A DNA stretch of 64,000 bases from sequence record OP558005.1; one strand, written 5' to 3'. The stretch is from Klebsiella phage vB_KpnM_VPA32. The number at the start of each line of letters is the position of its first letter. Within the stretch, counting starts at the first letter, position 1. The notes beneath the pieces are model-generated. The model was not told the origin of the DNA and searched no databases. It saw only the letters and a list, made by a program, of their open reading frames with translations. Below are positions 22,016 to 46,140 of this stretch, piece by piece. A program made the translations under genes and the position numbers.

Positions 22016-22276
22016 TTATTTTGAATGTTTTTCTAGCTGACGTTCAGCAAACAGCTTTGGCTGCATTAACAACCAACTTAAGATACGCCAGATGACTTGT
22101 ATGACACCGACAGGTAGCCATAATATAATACTAAACAAGTAATTAAAAGGTGTCTCTATGAACCCTCGTTTAACGAGAGCGTTTGTGATGAGCCACCCGA
22201 CGGCTAGATAAACCAATACAATAAAGACAGGCATAATCCACCATAGTTGAGCCAAAAGTAAAGTAACCATAATCAC
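22016..22276 (-). CDS. hypothetical membrane protein
   Basis: 86 aa, two or three hydrophobic helices. Confidence 0.4.
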   Translation of the reverse strand: MIMVTLLLAQLWWIMPVFIVLVYLAVGWLITNALVKRGFIETPFNYLFSIILWLPVGVIQVIWRILSWLLMQPKLFAERQLEKHSK

Positions 22277-23283
22277 CTGTAGTAAGAGTTGTGATTAGCC
22301 AGATAAACTTCTTCCAAGAACTTGTCCCAGAATGTCATGTCAACTTTATCAGGCATACCGTTTTTAGAAGCAATGATGCTTTGACGTTCAACTTCGTCAA
22401 CACAGATTTCTAACCACTCTTGAACTTCTTTGAATGGAATAGTACCGGCTTTAACTTTCTTGATGAACTCAGCATCTTTAAGCGGATAAACCAAATCACC
22501 GGTGGTGTAGATTTCCTGGAGCTGAAGACCGCCACGAAGAGCATGAGACAGAGCTTTCCAATCTACGCCTTCGTTAGCTTCTGCTTTACGAGCACGTTCG
22601 CCATATTCATTCCATAGCTTAGTGAGACTGTACTTCATTTCAGCAACCGTGATTGTCGTCTGGAATTTACGACCAAGCACATTGTAGAACTTCTGAACAC
22701 CAGATTTGTGGTCAACAAAATCAGTCCATTCGAGGAACTCTGAAGTCGGCAGCAGATGAGCAATATCAGCAACTTTCCAACGAACATTGTGAGCTTTATC
22801 CTTTGGACGATCTTCATATTTCCATTCTGGATAAGGCTCTAACACCTCAAGCACTTTACGAAGTTCAGCTAAACGAGAACCTTTGACACCATACTTAGCC
22901 GCTTGTTTACGAACATAACCAAGATAAGCTTTCATATCAGTGGTGTAGAAACGCCAGCGGTTATCTTGAACGAATTTCCAGACTTCAGGAAGTTCAGACT
23001 TAACAACCATGTTCACAGGAGTGTGAAGCATGTCCAACGCAACAGTTTCACCTGTAGCTGCTAATTGCAGGAAATACTTCAAAGAATAGAGTTCATGGTC
23101 AACGTCATCATGGGAGTTCTTCATTGAAGAGTTGTTGGTGTTCAAGTTGGTGTGATTCATTGCACGACAAAGCAGAATCTCTTTCGGATGAGGAACAAAG
23201 ATTTCTTTGAAGTCCGTGTCACTTTCTGGTGTTGACGTACCATAAAGATGGCTACCGAAGTAGCCTTTCATAACTGTTTTCAT
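22273..23283 (-). CDS. Pol-beta-superfamily nucleotidyltransferase domain protein
   Basis: 336 aa; N-terminal GSHLYGTSTPESDTDFKEIFV fits the hG[GS]x9-13DhD nucleotidyltransferase signature. Confidence 0.5.
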   Translation of the reverse strand: MKTVMKGYFGSHLYGTSTPESDTDFKEIFVPHPKEILLCRAMNHTNLNTNNSSMKNSHDDVDHELYSLKYFLQLAATGETVALDMLHTPVNMVVKSELPEVWKFVQDNRWRFYTTDMKAYLGYVRKQAAKYGVKGSRLAELRKVLEVLEPYPEWKYEDRPKDKAHNVRWKVADIAHLLPTSEFLEWTDFVDHKSGVQKFYNVLGRKFQTTITVAEMKYSLTKLWNEYGERARKAEANEGVDWKALSHALRGGLQLQEIYTTGDLVYPLKDAEFIKKVKAGTIPFKEVQEWLEICVDEVERQSIIASKNGMPDKVDMTFWDKFLEEVYLANHNSYYR

Positions 23284-41269: not shown

Positions 41270-41345
41270 TGGTGCCGGTTAACGGATTCGAACCGCTGAC
41301 CCTCTCATTACAAATGAGCTGCTCTACCAACTGAGCTAAACCGGC
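41270..41345 (-). tRNA. tRNA-Thr (anticodon TGT)
   Basis: GCCGGTT acceptor, GCTC..GAGC D-arm, anticodon loop TTTGTAA, T-arm GGTTCGAATCC, CCA encoded. Confidence 0.75.
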
Positions 41346-41346
41346 T

Positions 41347-41431
41347 TGGTGCATCAAGTGGGATTCGAACCCACAATCCAAAAGGCGCAGCATTTTAAGT
41401 GCTGTGTGTATACCAGTTCCACCATTGATGC
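41347..41431 (-). tRNA. tRNA-Leu (anticodon TAA), long variable arm
   Basis: acceptor GCATCAA/TTGATGC, anticodon loop CTTAAAA, T-arm GTGGGTTCGAATCCCAC. Confidence 0.7.
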
Positions 41432-41437
41432 GAAATT

Positions 41438-41522
41438 TGGAGCTAGGAGTGAGATTCGAACTCACGAAGGGATACCCGGCGGATTTGCAATCCGCTGCCT
41501 TTGGCCACTCAGCAACCCTAGC
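41438..41522 (-). tRNA. tRNA with Cys anticodon arm (GCA), U73, but type-II-like long variable arm
   Basis: anticodon stem-loop GCGGA-TTGCAAA-TCCGC identical to E. coli tRNA-Cys; 13-nt variable arm CGGGTATCCCTTC; D-arm GCT-GAGTGGCCAAA-GGC. Confidence 0.55.
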
Positions 41523-41526
41523 AAAT

Positions 41527-41604
41527 TGGTCGAGGTAGAGGGATTCGAACCCGTCGACCTGTGGATTAGAAGTCCACTGCTCTATCCAGCTGAGCTATAC
41601 CCCG
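41527..41604 (-). tRNA. tRNA-Arg (anticodon TCT)
   Basis: anticodon loop CTTCTAA; T-loop GGGTTCGAATCCC; weak T-stem (ACGGG/CCCTC). Confidence 0.6.
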
Positions 41605-41607
41605 AGT

Positions 41608-41734
41608 GTGTTCAGACAGGACTCGAACCTGTAAGCATGTTCTTGCGGCGTTTTACCACCGTCGTCAGCATATGATTCAATATGCGAACTCAAAAGGTGT
41701 TGGACCCCTTGTCTACCAATTCCAGCACTGAACA
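41608..41734 (-). ncRNA. 127-nt tRNA-like element (acceptor-type stem TGTTCAG/CTGAACA plus T-arm ACAGGTTCGAGTCCTGT), candidate stable RNA
   Basis: tRNA-like 3' half but about 50 nt too long for a tRNA; position analogous to T4 RNA C/D species in the tRNA cluster. Confidence 0.3.
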
Positions 41735-41744
41735 ACTTTATTTA

Positions 41745-41969
41745 TTACATATCAACTTGAGTAAACCAGTTGATTTTGAAATACTCATCAAAATGAAGAG
41801 CAGGTTCAACTTGAGTATCTTCCTCAAGAAGAATTAAATTCTTTCTTACAATCGGGTCAAGATGAGTTGTGTTTAAGCAGCTATCATGCCAATATGTAAG
41901 AACTCGATTTGATTCAGTATCAACGAGATAACGAACATTCATATCAGGATGTCGATACAGATTAATCAT
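41745..41969 (-). CDS. hypothetical protein
   Basis: 74 aa ORF within tRNA region. Confidence 0.35.
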   Translation of the reverse strand: MINLYRHPDMNVRYLVDTESNRVLTYWHDSCLNTTHLDPIVRKNLILLEEDTQVEPALHFDEYFKINWFTQVDM

Positions 41970-41972
41970 AAT

Positions 41973-42422
41973 CTATTTCTCTTGAAGCATTTTGCGTAAA
42001 CGATAGAGCTGATTACAAAATTCCTTTTCAGTCAAAACTGTTTCAGAGATTTTGTTCTTGCCCATACTATGAGTTAATGTTGCGTTACGAGTAGCAATCA
42101 ATGCTTTTTGGAATCCAGTGTTTTGAGCAAGTGCGTCATAAGCTCCAGTTAAAAGATTCTGGTATGCTTCAGATGCTCGATGAATAGGAACACCCTTCCA
42201 GTAAAGCGTTTGAGTAGGCCACCAACGTTTCTTCTTGCCTTTAAACTTTGCTGCCTTTCCAACCAAGGTGCAAACATGAGCTTGCATTTCAGGGTTAGAA
42301 AATTTGAGGGATTGTAAAAATCCCTCCATTGAAGCGCATTCTACACCGTCATAAACGAAAGCATGTGGTGCAAAGTTACTTAAAGCACAAGAAGGATATG
42401 AACTTCCAGAGCCAATGTCCAT
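41973..42422 (-). CDS. NADAR (DUF1768/YbiA-like) domain protein
   Basis: ALSNFAPHAFVYDGVECASMEGFLQSLKF aligns with YbiA FSNFAAWPIKVDGKTWPTSEHYFQAQKF core. Confidence 0.55.
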   Translation of the reverse strand: MDIGSGSSYPSCALSNFAPHAFVYDGVECASMEGFLQSLKFSNPEMQAHVCTLVGKAAKFKGKKKRWWPTQTLYWKGVPIHRASEAYQNLLTGAYDALAQNTGFQKALIATRNATLTHSMGKNKISETVLTEKEFCNQLYRLRKMLQEK

Positions 42423-42653
42423 TTAATTACCGTGAGATATTCTAGAAGGTTTCTTATCAAAATAATATTCATACGAGCCATCTAAACGACCTGCTTTAGT
42501 ACGGCAATATGAATCCCATTTCTTATAATGCCGCCATTCATCATTATATCTTGGATGACGGTCAGCGATTAAAATCTCTAATGGCCAACCAGGCGCAAAG
42601 GAACGGAGCCGTTCGACCTTTTTAATGTATCTTTTCTTTAAGATTTTCTTCAT
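42423..42653 (-). CDS. hypothetical basic protein
   Basis: 76 aa ORF. Confidence 0.35.
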   Translation of the reverse strand: MKKILKKRYIKKVERLRSFAPGWPLEILIADRHPRYNDEWRHYKKWDSYCRTKAGRLDGSYEYYFDKKPSRISHGN

Positions 42654-42871
42654 ATAGATTCCGACATTACGTGAGTAGTTCTCTTTCTGATTGTAAATTG
42701 AGTTAATTCATCAACTTCACCACAACGCCAAGCATCATCTTCAGTTTCAAAACCAAGAGCCTCAAATAGGTCACCTAGACGCCAACCTTCGTCAAACTCG
42801 GGGTCTCCTGAAAAATAGTAATAGTAATCACCAGTTACTAAATCTTGAATTACAAAATCAAACTTTTCCAT
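42650..42871 (-). CDS. hypothetical acidic protein
   Basis: 73 aa ORF. Confidence 0.35.
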   Translation of the reverse strand: MEKFDFVIQDLVTGDYYYYFSGDPEFDEGWRLGDLFEALGFETEDDAWRCGEVDELTQFTIRKRTTHVMSESI

Positions 42872-43368
42872 CAGATACTTACCACAGTAATAGCTTCAGG
42901 AGCTTTAGGAATAACGATATCTTCTTCGATGTAGAAGAGCTTAAATGTTTCAGCTACACGCATGAAGTCAATATCATAACCAACTGGAGTTCCAATCAAT
43001 TCCTGAATCTTATCCATCACTTTATACTGGACTTGATAAAAATCTTCAAGACGAGCATCGAATTCATCTTCAGTATAATCACCTTCTGGGATTACAAAGC
43101 CAAGCACTTCTGAACAGAACTCTGGAGTGATTTCTTCATTTTCAACACAGTATTCAAAGAAAGCATCACCGGAATAATCTTCATTACCCATTCCATTAGG
43201 GTCTGAATTATCAGATGCAAAACATTTAGCAACGGCACACCAACCTGGAATGTGTCTAGCATTTACAGCATAAATCACATTTTCTTGATAATCATCTCCG
43301 TCGTTTTCCCATGATACACACGATACAGCATAGCCTTTAGGGATAGTTTGACCAAAGCGGAGTTCCAT
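42871..43368 (-). CDS. hypothetical acidic protein
   Basis: 165 aa ORF. Confidence 0.4.
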   Translation of the reverse strand: MELRFGQTIPKGYAVSCVSWENDGDDYQENVIYAVNARHIPGWCAVAKCFASDNSDPNGMGNEDYSGDAFFEYCVENEEITPEFCSEVLGFVIPEGDYTEDEFDARLEDFYQVQYKVMDKIQELIGTPVGYDIDFMRVAETFKLFYIEEDIVIPKAPEAITVVSI

Positions 43369-43378
43369 AATATTTCCT

Positions 43379-43753
43379 TCAATTAAATGGTGGAAGTGGT
43401 TTCATATACAAATCTATCAACATTCTCCATTTAGCAATTACTTTAGAATACGGAGATTTATGAGAGAATTGCGAAATGTCAGAATAATCAAGTTCAGGCA
43501 GTGGAGTTAAATGACCCATCAGCTCACGAGGAAATTGATGAAAACAATTCATCAAATCTTTGTAAACATAATCAAGTAAGTCTTTAACATCAAAGAATTG
43601 GGTATTTAGTCCTTCTTTGGAATAACGATATTTCAGAAATTTCCAATGGCCAGACTTAGAATCTTGAGTAAACGCGTAATCACTATGAAGCATGATATCG
43701 CGAACAAAATCTTCAGAAAAGAAGATGGAGTGAGTGCAACCATAATAAATCAT
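43379..43753 (-). CDS. hypothetical protein (start trimmed; ORF-track N-terminus is translated tRNA)
   Basis: MIYYGCTHSIFF... start; upstream 48 nt overlap tRNA 43772-43848. Confidence 0.4.
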   Translation of the reverse strand: MIYYGCTHSIFFSEDFVRDIMLHSDYAFTQDSKSGHWKFLKYRYSKEGLNTQFFDVKDLLDYVYKDLMNCFHQFPRELMGHLTPLPELDYSDISQFSHKSPYSKVIAKWRMLIDLYMKPLPPFN

Positions 43754-43771
43754 AATATTTTCCTCAGAATT

Positions 43772-43848
43772 TGGTGACCCCAGCAGGACTCGAACCTGCA
43801 ACCTAGCGATTATGAGTCGCGTGCTCTAACCAATTGAGCTATAGGGCC
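43772..43848 (-). tRNA. tRNA-Met or Ile2 (anticodon CAT)
   Basis: GGCCCTA acceptor, GCTCAATTGGTTAGAGC D-arm, loop CTCATAA, T-arm GCAGGTTCGAGTCCTGC, CCA encoded. Confidence 0.7.
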
Positions 43849-43875
43849 AAAGTCCTCCTAAGAGGACCGAGGGTA

Positions 43876-44100
43876 TTATTCAACCATGAAATCTGCTACT
43901 TCATCAAAGTCGTTATTGATGACAACAGTAAATGGCAGAGCTTCATCACTTGTTTTGATAGTCAGCTTAACAAAACCATCAACAGTTTCAACCAAACCAA
44001 CGATTTTATCTGAACGCACTACAGCACGAGCTACGTCAACAATTTTGCCAGTCATTGCAAATGTAGCGATTTGGTTAACTTCAACAACGATACGTTTCAT
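43876..44100 (-). CDS. hypothetical protein
   Basis: 74 aa ORF. Confidence 0.35.
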   Translation of the reverse strand: MKRIVVEVNQIATFAMTGKIVDVARAVVRSDKIVGLVETVDGFVKLTIKTSDEALPFTVVINNDFDEVADFMVE

Positions 44101-44160
44101 TCTTTTTCCTTAGTGGTTTTGATAAGGTAATTATATACTGAATTTTTAAAGCGTTTTCAC

Positions 44161-44196
44161 TAAAAAGCCCCGTAACAGATTTCTCTGTCCGGGGCG
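44161..44196 (-). terminator. rho-independent terminator downstream of tRNA block
   Basis: gccccg...cggggc hairpin followed on minus strand by CTTTTTA. Confidence 0.55.
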
Positions 44197-44201
44197 TCAT
44201 T

Positions 44202-44276
44202 TGGTGGGAAGTGTTGGAATCGAACCAACCTCTCATGCTCTTCAGGCACGCGCTAATCCATCTCAGCTAACTTCCC
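44202..44276 (-). tRNA. tRNA-Phe (anticodon GAA)
   Basis: acceptor GGGAAGT/ACTTCCC, loop CTGAAGA, T-arm GTTGGTTCGATTCCAAC, CCA encoded. Confidence 0.7.
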
Positions 44277-44279
44277 AAT

Positions 44280-44356
44280 TGGTCGGTGCGGCAGGATTTG
44301 AACCTGCGACCCCTTGGTCCCAAACCAAGTGCTCTACCAAACTGAGCTACACACCG
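44280..44356 (-). tRNA. tRNA-Pro (anticodon TGG)
   Basis: CGGTGTG acceptor, loop TTTGGGA, T-arm GCAGGTTCAAATCCTGC. Confidence 0.75.
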
Positions 44357-44362
44357 TTAATT

Positions 44363-44437
44363 TGGAGCATCCAGAGAGAATCGAACTCTCCTCCGTTGGG
44401 TGGAAACCAACTATAATAGCCGCTATACGATGGATGC
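44363..44437 (-). tRNA. tRNA-Gly (anticodon TCC)
   Basis: GCATCCA acceptor, stem GTTGG loop TTTCCAC, T-arm GAGAGTTCGATTCTCTC. Confidence 0.7.
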
Positions 44438-44586
44438 ATTTGTACGGAACGCCAGGATTCGAACCTGGTTACAAAGTAGTTGACGCTACATTGCATTTTT
44501 CAAAGGCCGTCATCTTTCTATGTCAAAGGAGCAGCGTCAACTACTTTATCCTTAGACACATCAGATAAGTCCTCGAACCGATTGTT

Positions 44587-44660
44587 TGGCAGGCCCCGTA
44601 GGAATCGAACCCACGTCACTGAGGTTGGAGCTCAGGGTAATACCACTATACGAGAGACCT
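44587..44660 (-). tRNA. tRNA-Trp (anticodon CCA)
   Basis: loop CTCCAAC, T-arm GTGGGTTCGATTCCTAC. Confidence 0.65.
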
Positions 44661-44664
44661 AAAA

Positions 44665-44758
44665 TGGAGGAAGCGGTGGGATTCGAACCCACGGACCGTA
44701 TCACTACGGCCTCCGCATTTCAAGTGCGGTGCAATTAACCAGACTCTACCACGCTTCC
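44665..44758 (-). tRNA. tRNA-Ser (anticodon TGA), long variable arm
   Basis: GGAAGCG acceptor, loop CTTGAAA, 20-nt variable arm, T-arm GTGGGTTCGAATCCCAC. Confidence 0.75.
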
Positions 44759-44766
44759 GAATTGAG

Positions 44767-44839
44767 GGTGACCGATGGGAGTTGAACCCATGACTACGAG
44801 AATCACAATCTCGAGTTCTACCAACTGAACTACGGCCAC
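44767..44839 (-). tRNA. tRNA-His (anticodon GTG), CCA not encoded
   Basis: GTGGCCG acceptor, loop TTGTGAT, T-arm ATGGGTTCAACTCCCAT. Confidence 0.65.
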
Positions 44840-45053
44840 ATCAATATTTACTCCAGCAATCATGATGCCTTCACACGAAATTGAGAGAAGAGTGATCAGT
44901 TCAACCCTTGTAGACGCGTCAAGTAAATATTGATGTGACAGCTTATTTAAGAAGAGTGAGAGTCCCAGTCTTGTACGGAGTAACCATTTATGCATTGGCA
45001 GCTATCGCGCGGTTCGCACTTCCGATAAATGGACTTACCGTTACACTCTAATT

Positions 45054-45128
45054 TGGCTGGACTATCTGGATTCGAACCAGAGATACCGGAGTCAAAGGCC
45101 GGTGACTTAACCGCTTGTCTATAGTCCA
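45054..45128 (-). tRNA. tRNA-Gln (anticodon TTG)
   Basis: TGGACTA acceptor, loop CTTTGAC, T-arm TCTGGTTCGAATCCAGA. Confidence 0.6.
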
Positions 45129-45134
45129 ATTGTT

Positions 45135-45211
45135 TGGAGGCGGGTGATGGACTCGAACCATCGCGTAACGGGATATGAACCCGTCATTCTACCAACTGAA
45201 GTTAACCCGCA
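45135..45211 (-). tRNA. tRNA-Met (anticodon CAT), possible initiator (1-72 mismatch)
   Basis: stem ACGGG loop TTCATAT, T-arm GATGGTTCGAGTCCATC. Confidence 0.65.
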
Positions 45212-45368
45212 TCTATCCGGATTCTTGAAGTACTAACAAGTAGCTTGATGTAGAACACGCTAAAGATATAATCTTCCGAATATAGAGCTTATCCCGTGGG
45301 AACAAACAGCTTCGTCCTCGGCATTATCTTATAGGACTCAAACTCATCTTCAAGAACTGCCTCGTATT

Positions 45369-45444
45369 TGGCGGACCTAACGGGATTCGAACCCGTGACT
45401 CTCGCGTGACAGGCGAGTATTTTCACCGCTGAAACTATAGGTCC
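45369..45444 (-). tRNA. tRNA-Asp (anticodon GTC)
   Basis: GGACCTA acceptor, loop CTGTCAC, T-arm ACGGGTTCGAATCCCGT. Confidence 0.7.
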
Positions 45445-45687
45445 AAATTTACTTTCGTGAGTATGGGATTACCCTCAAGCCTTCCGGAAAGCTGAATAGG
45501 CGTTATTGGCTCTCATATACCCGTGCACAGATATAATCTTCATTAACGCAATAACTTCATCAATATACTCCGAAAGTAAACTTTCGGCGCCGTATTTAAT
45601 TTGGACTGTGTAGTTATCGTTGAGGGAACTCACAGACAGGGATTAAAGTGCCGACGACTTATCAGAACGTCTTCTGACTTCTACATT

Positions 45688-45772
45688 TGGCGGGCCGTGC
45701 AGGTATCGAACCTGCCTAGTCATTTCTGACACGGATTAACAGTCCGTCGCTTACCCTCTCAGCCAACGACCC
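45688..45772 (-). tRNA. tRNA with Asn anticodon arm (GTT), G73, but type-II-like long variable arm
   Basis: anticodon stem-loop CGGACTGTTAATCCG identical to E. coli tRNA-Asn; 15-nt variable arm GTCAGAAATGACTAG; D-arm GCT-GAGAGGGTA-AGC. Confidence 0.55.
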
Positions 45773-45778
45773 TGAATT

Positions 45779-45853
45779 TGGTTCTCCGTAAGAGAATTGA
45801 ACTCTTCTTTCCGACGTGAAAGGCCGGCGTCCTAACCGATAGACGAACGGAGA
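45779..45853 (-). tRNA. tRNA-Glu (anticodon TTC)
   Basis: loop CTTTCAC, T-arm AAGAGTTCAATTCTCTT. Confidence 0.7.
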
Positions 45854-45854
45854 T

Positions 45855-45932
45855 TGGTAGGACGTGAGGGAGTTGAACCCATCGACATTCCGATTAAAAG
45901 TCGGATGCTCTAACCAACTGAGCTAACGTCCT
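45855..45932 (-). tRNA. tRNA-Lys (anticodon TTT)
   Basis: AGGACGT acceptor, GCTCAGTTGGTTAGAGC D-arm, loop CTTTTAA. Confidence 0.65.
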
Positions 45933-45970
45933 GTAGATATTTATAATATCAAAAATATCTTTAAGCAAAT

Positions 45971-46046
45971 TGGTGGGAATAACTGGACTCGAACCAGTGA
46001 CCTAACGATTATCGGTCGTTTGCTCTACCAACTGAGCTATATTCCC
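45971..46046 (-). tRNA. tRNA-Ile (anticodon GAT)
   Basis: GGGAATA acceptor, loop CCGATAA, T-arm ACTGGTTCGAGTCCAGT. Confidence 0.75.
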
Positions 46047-46052
46047 GGAATT

Positions 46053-46140
46053 TGGTGGGGAGTGATGGAGTCGAACCACCCGAGTCGCAATGACAACAGA
46101 TTTACAGTCTGCACCGCTACCTCTACGGAATTAACTCCCC
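46053..46140 (-). tRNA. tRNA-Tyr (anticodon GTA), long variable arm
   Basis: anticodon arm GCAGACTGTAAATCTGT as E. coli tRNA-Tyr; T-arm GGTGGTTCGACTCCATC. Confidence 0.7.

Follow-up and report, generated by a model that had tools for sequence, protein, structure and literature searches.

Class II tRNAs, those with a long variable arm, comprise tRNA-Leu, tRNA-Ser, bacterial tRNA-Tyr and tRNA-Sec, plus the selC* and allo-tRNAs (reviews from 2020 and 2023). A precedent for the gene reported here is given by the selC* tRNA-Cys species, which combine a long variable arm with U73 and a GCA or UCA anticodon and are cysteinylated both in vitro and in vivo (Mukai 2017, PMC5389517). Thus, long arms are compatible with CysRS. 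The selC* molecules are tRNA-Sec-like, with a bulged 8/4 geometry in which the acceptor and anticodon stems are lengthened; they are linked to selB* and cysS* and belong to anaerobic bacteria (PMC5389517). Class II bodies also occur with class I anticodons in the nematode nev-tRNAs, which are charged with leucine at Gly or Ile codons (Hamashima 2012, PMC3333845). This mischarging works because LeuRS ignores the anticodon and the crucial Leu determinants are kept (PMC3333845). Finally, Streptomyces coelicolor has both type I and type II tRNA-Leu, and one LeuRS serves both (PMC6614811).

The major determinants for CysRS are U73 and the GCA anticodon, and U73 alone gives minihelices Cys identity; the critical determinants for TyrRS are A73 and U35 (Giege and Eriani 2023). 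The G15:G48 pair is a strong determinant for E. coli CysRS but is conserved in few bacterial species only (Giege and Eriani 2023), and the acceptor determinants listed for bacterial Cys tRNAs are G2-C71 and C3-G70. Here, we describe a phage gene that, judging from its sequence, is quite likely a functional cysteine tRNA on a class II scaffold with the canonical 7/5 acceptor/T geometry, and we compare it with these systems.

Genomic setting and structure of the gene

The window, that is, the whole stretch of 64,000 nucleotides of Klebsiella phage vB_KpnM_VPA32 (OP558005.1) that was analyzed, comes from a T4-like Enterobacter phage (genus Karamvirus). The 6-kb stretch around the gene shows 94 to 95% identity to phages fGh-Ecl01 and PG7, and other ORFs of the window match T4 gp46/47-like proteins, NrdD and the baseplate proteins gp5, gp6, gp7 and gp10. 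The same phage carries a large tRNA cluster and, at positions 22273 to 23283 on the minus strand, an ORF with a Pfam match to RlaP (E value, 2.9e-14), a DNA polymerase beta family protein of an RNA repair pathway. The cluster holds 19 tRNA genes on the minus strand (41270 to 46140), 18 called by ARAGORN and one more, at 46056 to 46140, by Rfam. They span 18 amino acids, with only Ala and Val absent, and the gene described here is the sole Cys member. It is the second gene of an Arg(UCU)-Cys-Leu(UAA)-Thr(UGU) sub-cluster (41270 to 41604, minus strand), whose genes are separated by gaps of 1 to 6 nt and point in the same direction as the small ORFs on either side. When the surroundings of the tRNA cluster were scanned for promoters and terminators, fewer promoter-like sites turned up than in shuffled sequences, and the scans yielded no informative signal.

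The gene is 85 nt long, runs from 41522 to 41438 on the minus strand with its CCA encoded, and was called tRNA-Cys(GCA) by ARAGORN. The Rfam tRNA model RF00005 matched positions 41441 to 41522 with a score of 48 bits (gathering score, 29; E value, 3.7e-7 for the whole window). The single-sequence MFE z-score was only −1.78, a value that is uninformative for a tRNA. In order, the sequence reads GCUAGGG UU GCUG AGUGGCCAA AGGC A GCGGA UUGCAAA UCCGC CGGGUAUCCCUUC GUGAG UUCGAAU CUCAC UCCUAGC U CCA, and it folds into a regular cloverleaf. In the ARAGORN drawing, the 5' strand of the 7-bp acceptor stem, GCUAGGG (tRNA positions 1 to 7; 41516 to 41522), pairs with UCCUAGC (41442 to 41448), including a G7.U66 wobble. 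Both Rfam and ARAGORN place the D arm, GCUG-AGUGGCCAA-AGGC, at 41497 to 41513; its stem consists of three pairs (G10-C25, C11-G24 and U12-G23), with G13.A22 as an unpaired mismatch, and its 9-nt loop includes A14, G15, G18 and G19. The anticodon arm, GCGGA-UUGCAAA-UCCGC (41479 to 41495), has a 5-bp stem and a 7-nt loop with U33 and the anticodon GCA (positions 34 to 36; 41486 to 41488; tgc on the plus strand), which ARAGORN puts at position 35 of the gene and which reads UGU and UGC. The T arm, GUGAG-UUCGAAU-CUCAC (41449 to 41465; Rfam and ARAGORN drawing), has a 5-bp stem, and U8, A14, G18G19 and the UUCGAAU T loop are all present in the drawing. The discriminator base U73 (41441) and the genome-encoded 3' CCA (41438 to 41440) are evident from both the sequence and the drawing.

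The variable region (41466 to 41478) is 13 nt long and reads C-GGG-UAU-CCC-UUC, with a GGG/CCC stem closed by a UAU loop in both the MFE fold and the ARAGORN drawing; the Rfam tRNA model placed 11 of its bases as an insertion. Given as 5' unpaired bases, stem pairs, loop bases and 3' unpaired bases, the layout is (1,3,3,3), and the terminal C48 faces G15. A variable region of at least 10 nt that forms a stem-loop defines class II, and the gene belongs to this class. The first-pass annotation, which gave no strand, had proposed a Cys-like anticodon stem-loop, GCGGA-TTGCAAA-TCCGC, together with U73 and a 13-nt variable arm. All three are present, on the minus strand, and folding gave a 13-nt variable region and no standard 4- to 5-nt loop.

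Conservation in related phages

The gene was found at 97.6 to 100% identity across 29 phage records, most of which annotate it as tRNA-Cys. A more distant version, in Escherichia phage EcS1 (Kagamiyamavirus), is 87 nt long and 85% identical. There, the anticodon stem GCGGA/UCCGC is replaced by CUGGA/UCCAG with the pairing kept, and in place of the GGG/CCC variable stem, at the same location, stands AGCG/UGCU, or AGC(G)/(U)GCU. Two further pairs change from U12-G23 to C12-G23 and from G7.U66 to A7-U66. Cluster membership, presence in 29 records and the compensatory changes in EcS1 establish that this is a real tRNA gene beyond chance.

A similar picture was obtained with more relatives. In an RNAalifold consensus of 20 family members, 14 of the 22 pairs had two-sided changes that keep the pair. 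All seven acceptor-stem pairs were canonical across 20 relatives, with compensatory changes in six of them, and the D-stem pairs 10:25, 11:24 and 12:23 were canonical in all 23 viral relatives, with two to five pair types each. The variable stem is missing from the RNAalifold consensus because MAFFT misaligns arms of unequal length; variable stems were tested by folding each sequence with shuffled controls. In the viral set, 83% of the variable regions formed at least 3 bp, compared with 22% of the shuffles. These changes suggest that the gene is under selection, although the near-identity within Karamvirus may equally reflect recent common ancestry.

Comparison with tyrosine, serine and leucine tRNAs

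The long arm of the window tRNA was compared with arms measured on phage tRNAs that had not been selected for layout. Phage tRNA-Tyr has the layout (1,3,x,3), modal in 22 to 26 of 26 cases, with 13 to 15 nt, and carried A73 in 30 of 30 cases. In phage tRNA-Ser the layout is (1,5-7,x,1), with stems of 5 to 7 bp, a total of 16 to 20 nt and a single 3' unpaired base, and in phage tRNA-Leu it is about (1,2-4,x,2), with A15:U48 and with A73 in 61 of 62 class II tRNAs. With 13 nt in the layout (1,3,3,3), G15:C48 and G1-C72, the window tRNA follows the tRNA-Tyr layout. The likeness extends beyond the arm. The only E. coli chromosomal BLAST matches of the window tRNA were tyrT and tyrV, and they were weak (E value, 0.02). 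Like the window tRNA, E. coli tRNA-Tyr (tyrT/tyrV) has 85 nt, U8U9, a D loop of the form AGYGGCCAA, G13.A22, A26, the arm layout C-[3 bp, 3-nt loop]-UUC, the T loop UUCGAAU and G1-C72. It differs in having GUA and not GCA (U35 where the window tRNA has C35), A73 and not U73, and C32 and not U32, and the helices have diverged.

The first-pass annotation had raised the possibility of a misacylating tRNA. One form of this would be recognition of the Tyr-type body by TyrRS, leading to tyrosine at Cys codons, as leucine is misplaced by the nematode nev-tRNAs. The layout, U8U9 and the D loop AGUGGCCAA are indeed as in bacterial tRNA-Tyr, positions 8 to 26 are the same as in the phage tRNA-Tyr at locus L293, the E. 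coli matches are to tyrT/tyrV only, and class II mischarging has a precedent. However, the two critical TyrRS determinants, A73 and U35, are replaced by exactly the Cys determinants. The nev-tRNAs keep the crucial leucylation determinants of their donor, whereas in the window tRNA both A73 and U35 have given way to determinants that match its anticodon, with U73 fitting the amino acid of that anticodon. Additionally, GCA goes with U73 in all 112 family members among the matches listed (see below). In the phage NrdD, as aligned to T4 NrdD, UGY codons also stand at invariant cysteines, namely the four of the zinc ribbon and the catalytic ones; UGY thus encodes essential cysteines, and the phage therefore depends on UGY being read as cysteine. 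We consider charging by TyrRS very improbable.

The other form would be charging by SerRS through the long arm, in the style of tRNA-Sec, giving serine at Cys codons or a Ser-tRNA intermediate. Although the long variable arm and C11-G24 are both review-listed bacterial Ser determinants, the arm is not of the Ser type: its stem has 3 bp, its length is 13 nt and it leaves three 3' bases unpaired, versus 5 to 7 bp, 16 to 20 nt and one unpaired base in phage tRNA-Ser. U73 stands in place of the usual G73, and C2-G71 in place of G2-C71. No gene resembling a Sec or Sep pathway was noticed among the nine large ORFs of the window that were sampled. This form of misacylation appears extremely remote. 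In the tRNA cluster itself, the tRNA-Ser(UGA) gene at 44665 to 44758 (minus strand) has U73 instead of the usual G73, which was the case for 10 of 98 sampled phage tRNA-Ser genes.

A chimera, another explanation put forward by the first-pass annotation, is not needed to account for the gene. We dropped a Cys anticodon arm placed on a Tyr body as a candidate: EcS1 has a different anticodon stem, and GCGGA/UCCGC is not diagnostic.

Comparison with cysteine tRNAs

The reading that we prefer is a functional phage tRNA-Cys, and the canonical counterpart for comparison is E. coli cysT (74 nt). The two share U73 (41441), the anticodon G34 C35 A36 (41488 to 41486), 16 of the 17 bases of the anticodon arm, G1-C72 and the 7/5 geometry, as well as a 3-bp D stem with a purine-purine mismatch at 13.22. 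The last point bears on the 3-bp D stem, which the first-pass annotation had counted as a type II feature. It is present, but it is not foreign to Cys, as canonical E. coli tRNA-Cys has 3 bp and A13.A22. Since E. coli tRNA-Cys shares both the short D stem and the purine-purine mismatch, the variable arm is the one feature that does not fit the Cys type. The differences from cysT are the 13-nt variable hairpin versus the 4-nt loop CUAG, a core of G15:C48 and G13.A22 versus G15:G48 and A13.A22, a D loop of 9 versus 7 nt, U9 versus A9, and an acceptor stem with C2-G71 and U3-A70 versus G2-C71 and C3-G70. Because G15:G48, A13.A22, G2-C71 and C3-G70 are absent, charging by an enterobacterial CysRS could be inefficient.

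The absence of G15:G48 and of the minor acceptor-stem determinants of E. coli would also fit a poorly charged or non-translational tRNA-like RNA, for instance a duplicate in decay or a decoy that diverts a host nuclease from its tRNA targets. The cluster contains other atypical tRNAs, a class II tRNA-Asn and a tRNA-Tyr whose D stem is weak and which one record annotates as a pseudogene; these point in the same direction. Against this, no helix is disrupted and the tertiary positions universal to tRNAs are all conserved, the EcS1 version has evolved by compensatory changes, and the anticodon arm is almost identical to that of the host tRNA-Cys, as expected of a substrate of CysRS and the ribosome. 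We regard a decoy or a decaying copy as unlikely, and a working tRNA-Cys as the better description of the gene.

Like the window tRNA, the selC* tRNAs are natural Cys tRNAs that join U73 and GCA to a long variable arm; for selC*, cysteinylation was shown. The window tRNA departs from them in its plain 7/5 body (7-bp acceptor, 5-bp T and 5-bp anticodon stems in place of 8/4 and elongated stems), its Tyr-type arm and its location in a phage tRNA cluster.

Distribution of class II tRNA-Cys

Viral contigs and one genome per bacterial species were scanned with the pattern GGATTGCAAATCC, 16 to 30 bases, GTTCGAATC; the pattern of both large surveys fixes GGAUUGCAAAUCC and GUUCGAAUC and leaves position 73 free. 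In the viral contigs, 32 loci were found, with 23 distinct tRNA-Cys(GCA) sequences of 79 to 88 nt and very different acceptor and T stems. The bacterial genomes gave at least 120 loci and at least 89 distinct class II tRNA-Cys sequences, in which CCA is not encoded. Frequencies from these surveys are rough, because bases of the pattern are fixed and two of the listings give lower bounds. All 112 distinct class II tRNA-Cys sequences among the matches listed (23 viral and 89 bacterial) had U73, and in the same matches the D-stem pairs were canonical in 88 of the 89 genomic sequences, as they were in all viral ones. The same anchors with class I spacing gave at least 120 loci in the viral contigs; because these matches are so numerous, the long-armed forms appear to be a minority of phage Cys tRNAs.

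The bacterial class II tRNA-Cys genes among the matches listed were nearly all from Phycisphaerae or other Planctomycetota, and almost all were chromosomal. One of them is flanked by the genes for SecA and glutamine synthetase on a chromosome of 3.1 Mb; that chromosomal tRNA-Cys genes in such a setting share the design is a further argument against a decoy. In the matches listed, arm lengths in Phycisphaerae peak at 12, 14 and 16 nt, as expected from additions of whole base pairs. At two Phycisphaerae loci (L117 and L139), the long tRNA-Cys stands next to a copy of 74 nt that shares its D arm. Among the matches listed at loci L037 to L156 (for example, L046:6198-6280), 116 of 118 Cys genes were class II, 81 to 88 nt long, with U73 and no encoded CCA.

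These results bear on two further statements of the first-pass annotation. The confinement of long arms to Leu, Ser and Tyr stands as a textbook rule, but the 23 viral and at least 89 bacterial class II tRNA-Cys sequences make it less than absolute. Its third suggestion, an unusual phage tRNA architecture, gains support, since a design with GCA and U73 recurs in these same distinct sequences. A literature search on phages and Planctomycetota, with most subscription journals outside its coverage, did not turn up any account of a 7/5 class II tRNA-Cys. It appears that the class II nature of the molecule and the size of its family are new, while the annotation as tRNA-Cys in relatives was already known.

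Origin of the scaffold

Two routes fit the sequences, and either may have been taken: a tRNA-Tyr ancestor could have changed by U35C and A73U, or a Cys tRNA with a short loop could have gained the hairpin, with losses of the hairpin also possible. The identity of positions 8 to 26 with the tRNA-Tyr at L293 and the Tyr-type arm layout support the first route. The second is supported by tRNA-Cys genes with the same D arm and a loop of 5 to 6 nt in 24 viral contigs and phage CBB, and by the short and long tRNA-Cys copies that stand together at the two Phycisphaerae loci. A pattern search found two phage tRNA-Tyr genes (L293 and L307) with the D arm of the window tRNA. Of 28 new loci that a looser probe found with this D arm, most (24) were short-loop tRNA-Cys. 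Because the D arm is found in both, it does not tell a Tyr from a Cys origin. Similarly, a hand alignment of positions 8 to 43 gave roughly 32 of 36 matches to the tRNA-Tyr at L293, about equal to the short-loop tRNA-Cys at L284. With profile HMMs built from sets of phage tRNAs, the scores of the window tRNA were 29 for Tyr, 35.7 for Ser, 9.8 for Leu, 48.3 for short Cys and 64.6 for long Cys. We rejected these scores as a test of origin, given that the pattern behind the Cys sets fixes 22 bases shared with the window tRNA and that the long set includes its relatives.

In Pectobacterium phage CBB (L002:291-368), the tRNA-Cys is 75 nt long, with a class II-like D arm, CCUG-AGUUGGCUUA-AAGG, and a 5-nt loop, UGUUC. 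From its sequence, it looks like a class II Cys tRNA minus the hairpin. That the same body occurs both with and without the hairpin suggests that the arm is neither required nor harmful. The tRNA-Leu of S. coelicolor offers a parallel: one family there has short and long forms, as do the Cys tRNAs that share one D arm. However, the S. coelicolor case runs in the opposite direction, with a class I member in a normally class II family, and the amino acid and the synthetase differ.

Other tRNAs with unusual bodies

Several other tRNAs of the cluster and of the surveyed phages have unexpected features. At 45688 to 45772 (minus strand), the window encodes an 85-nt class II tRNA-Asn(GUU) whose discriminator is G73 and whose variable arm, GUCA-GAAA-UGAC-UAG, has 15 nt. 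This gene had matches in 620 phage records, among them T5-like phages of Salmonella and Escherichia, T4-like phages of Klebsiella and rV5-like phages, and its counterpart in PG7 is annotated as tRNA-Asx. The tRNA-Tyr(GUA, A73) at 46053 to 46140 (minus strand) was found by Rfam only (39 bits) and missed by ARAGORN. Its D stem is weak (A-U, U-G and U-G, read by eye), and one relative has it as tRNA-Pseudo-GTA; 1,563 phage records matched, from T4-like, T5-like, Felix-like and even Enterococcus phages. The CAU tRNA at 43772 to 43848 (minus strand) was called Met by ARAGORN, while its counterpart in fGh-Ecl01 is apparently annotated as tRNA-Ile, which would fit a lysidine-type tRNA-Ile2.

The 120 viral loci listed included 19 long-armed tRNA-Ile(UAU) genes of 90 to 95 nt (L162, L164, L188, L190 and others), most with the motif CCAGAUUAG. 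In Microbacterium phage Cece (L277), an 86-nt tRNA-His(GUG) at 195 to 280 and a 90-nt tRNA-Met(CAU) at 326 to 415 are annotated, both long-armed although their amino acids are of class I. An 87-nt tRNA-Lys(UUU) with A73 was found at L006 and an 87-nt tRNA-His at L029.

Discussion

We propose that the window tRNA-Cys would be transcribed together with the Arg-Cys-Leu-Thr sub-cluster from the minus strand and processed like its neighbors. The host CysRS would then charge it by way of U73 and GCA, with the variable arm presumably not being read, and the charged tRNA would decode UGU and UGC during infection as the only Cys tRNA of the phage's own. For Klebsiella phage vB_KpnM_VPA32, the practical meaning is modest and most likely consists of a plain supply of tRNA-Cys.

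For tRNA biology, a canonical 7/5 class II body with Cys identity is no one-off, as it occurs in dozens of phage lineages and across a class of bacteria. Should these tRNAs carry cysteine, then neither the variable arm nor the G15:G48 core would matter to CysRS in natural substrates. Isoacceptor families would be able to shift between class I and class II, and nature would have provided a case in which to test how tRNA identity switches between Tyr and Cys. There is also a consequence for annotation. Tools call Cys by the anticodon, and a body-based classifier might disagree; the same applies to the long-armed Asn, Ile, His, Met and Lys tRNAs of phages.

More tentatively, and we hold this as possible rather than probable, the 7/5 class II tRNA-Cys genes could form an unrecognized isoacceptor family, located on Phycisphaerae chromosomes, where they may be the sole tRNA-Cys, and in phage tRNA clusters, with U35C and A73U as a natural Tyr-Cys switch. 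In enterobacterial phages, the class II core might then have a task of its own; for instance, it might replace the G15:G48 determinant or weaken attack by host tRNA-targeting nucleases. If this reading is true, the long variable arm extends past Leu, Ser, Tyr and Sec, and the tRNAs for Tyr (UAY) and Cys (UGY) would be linked in nature by a two-step switch.
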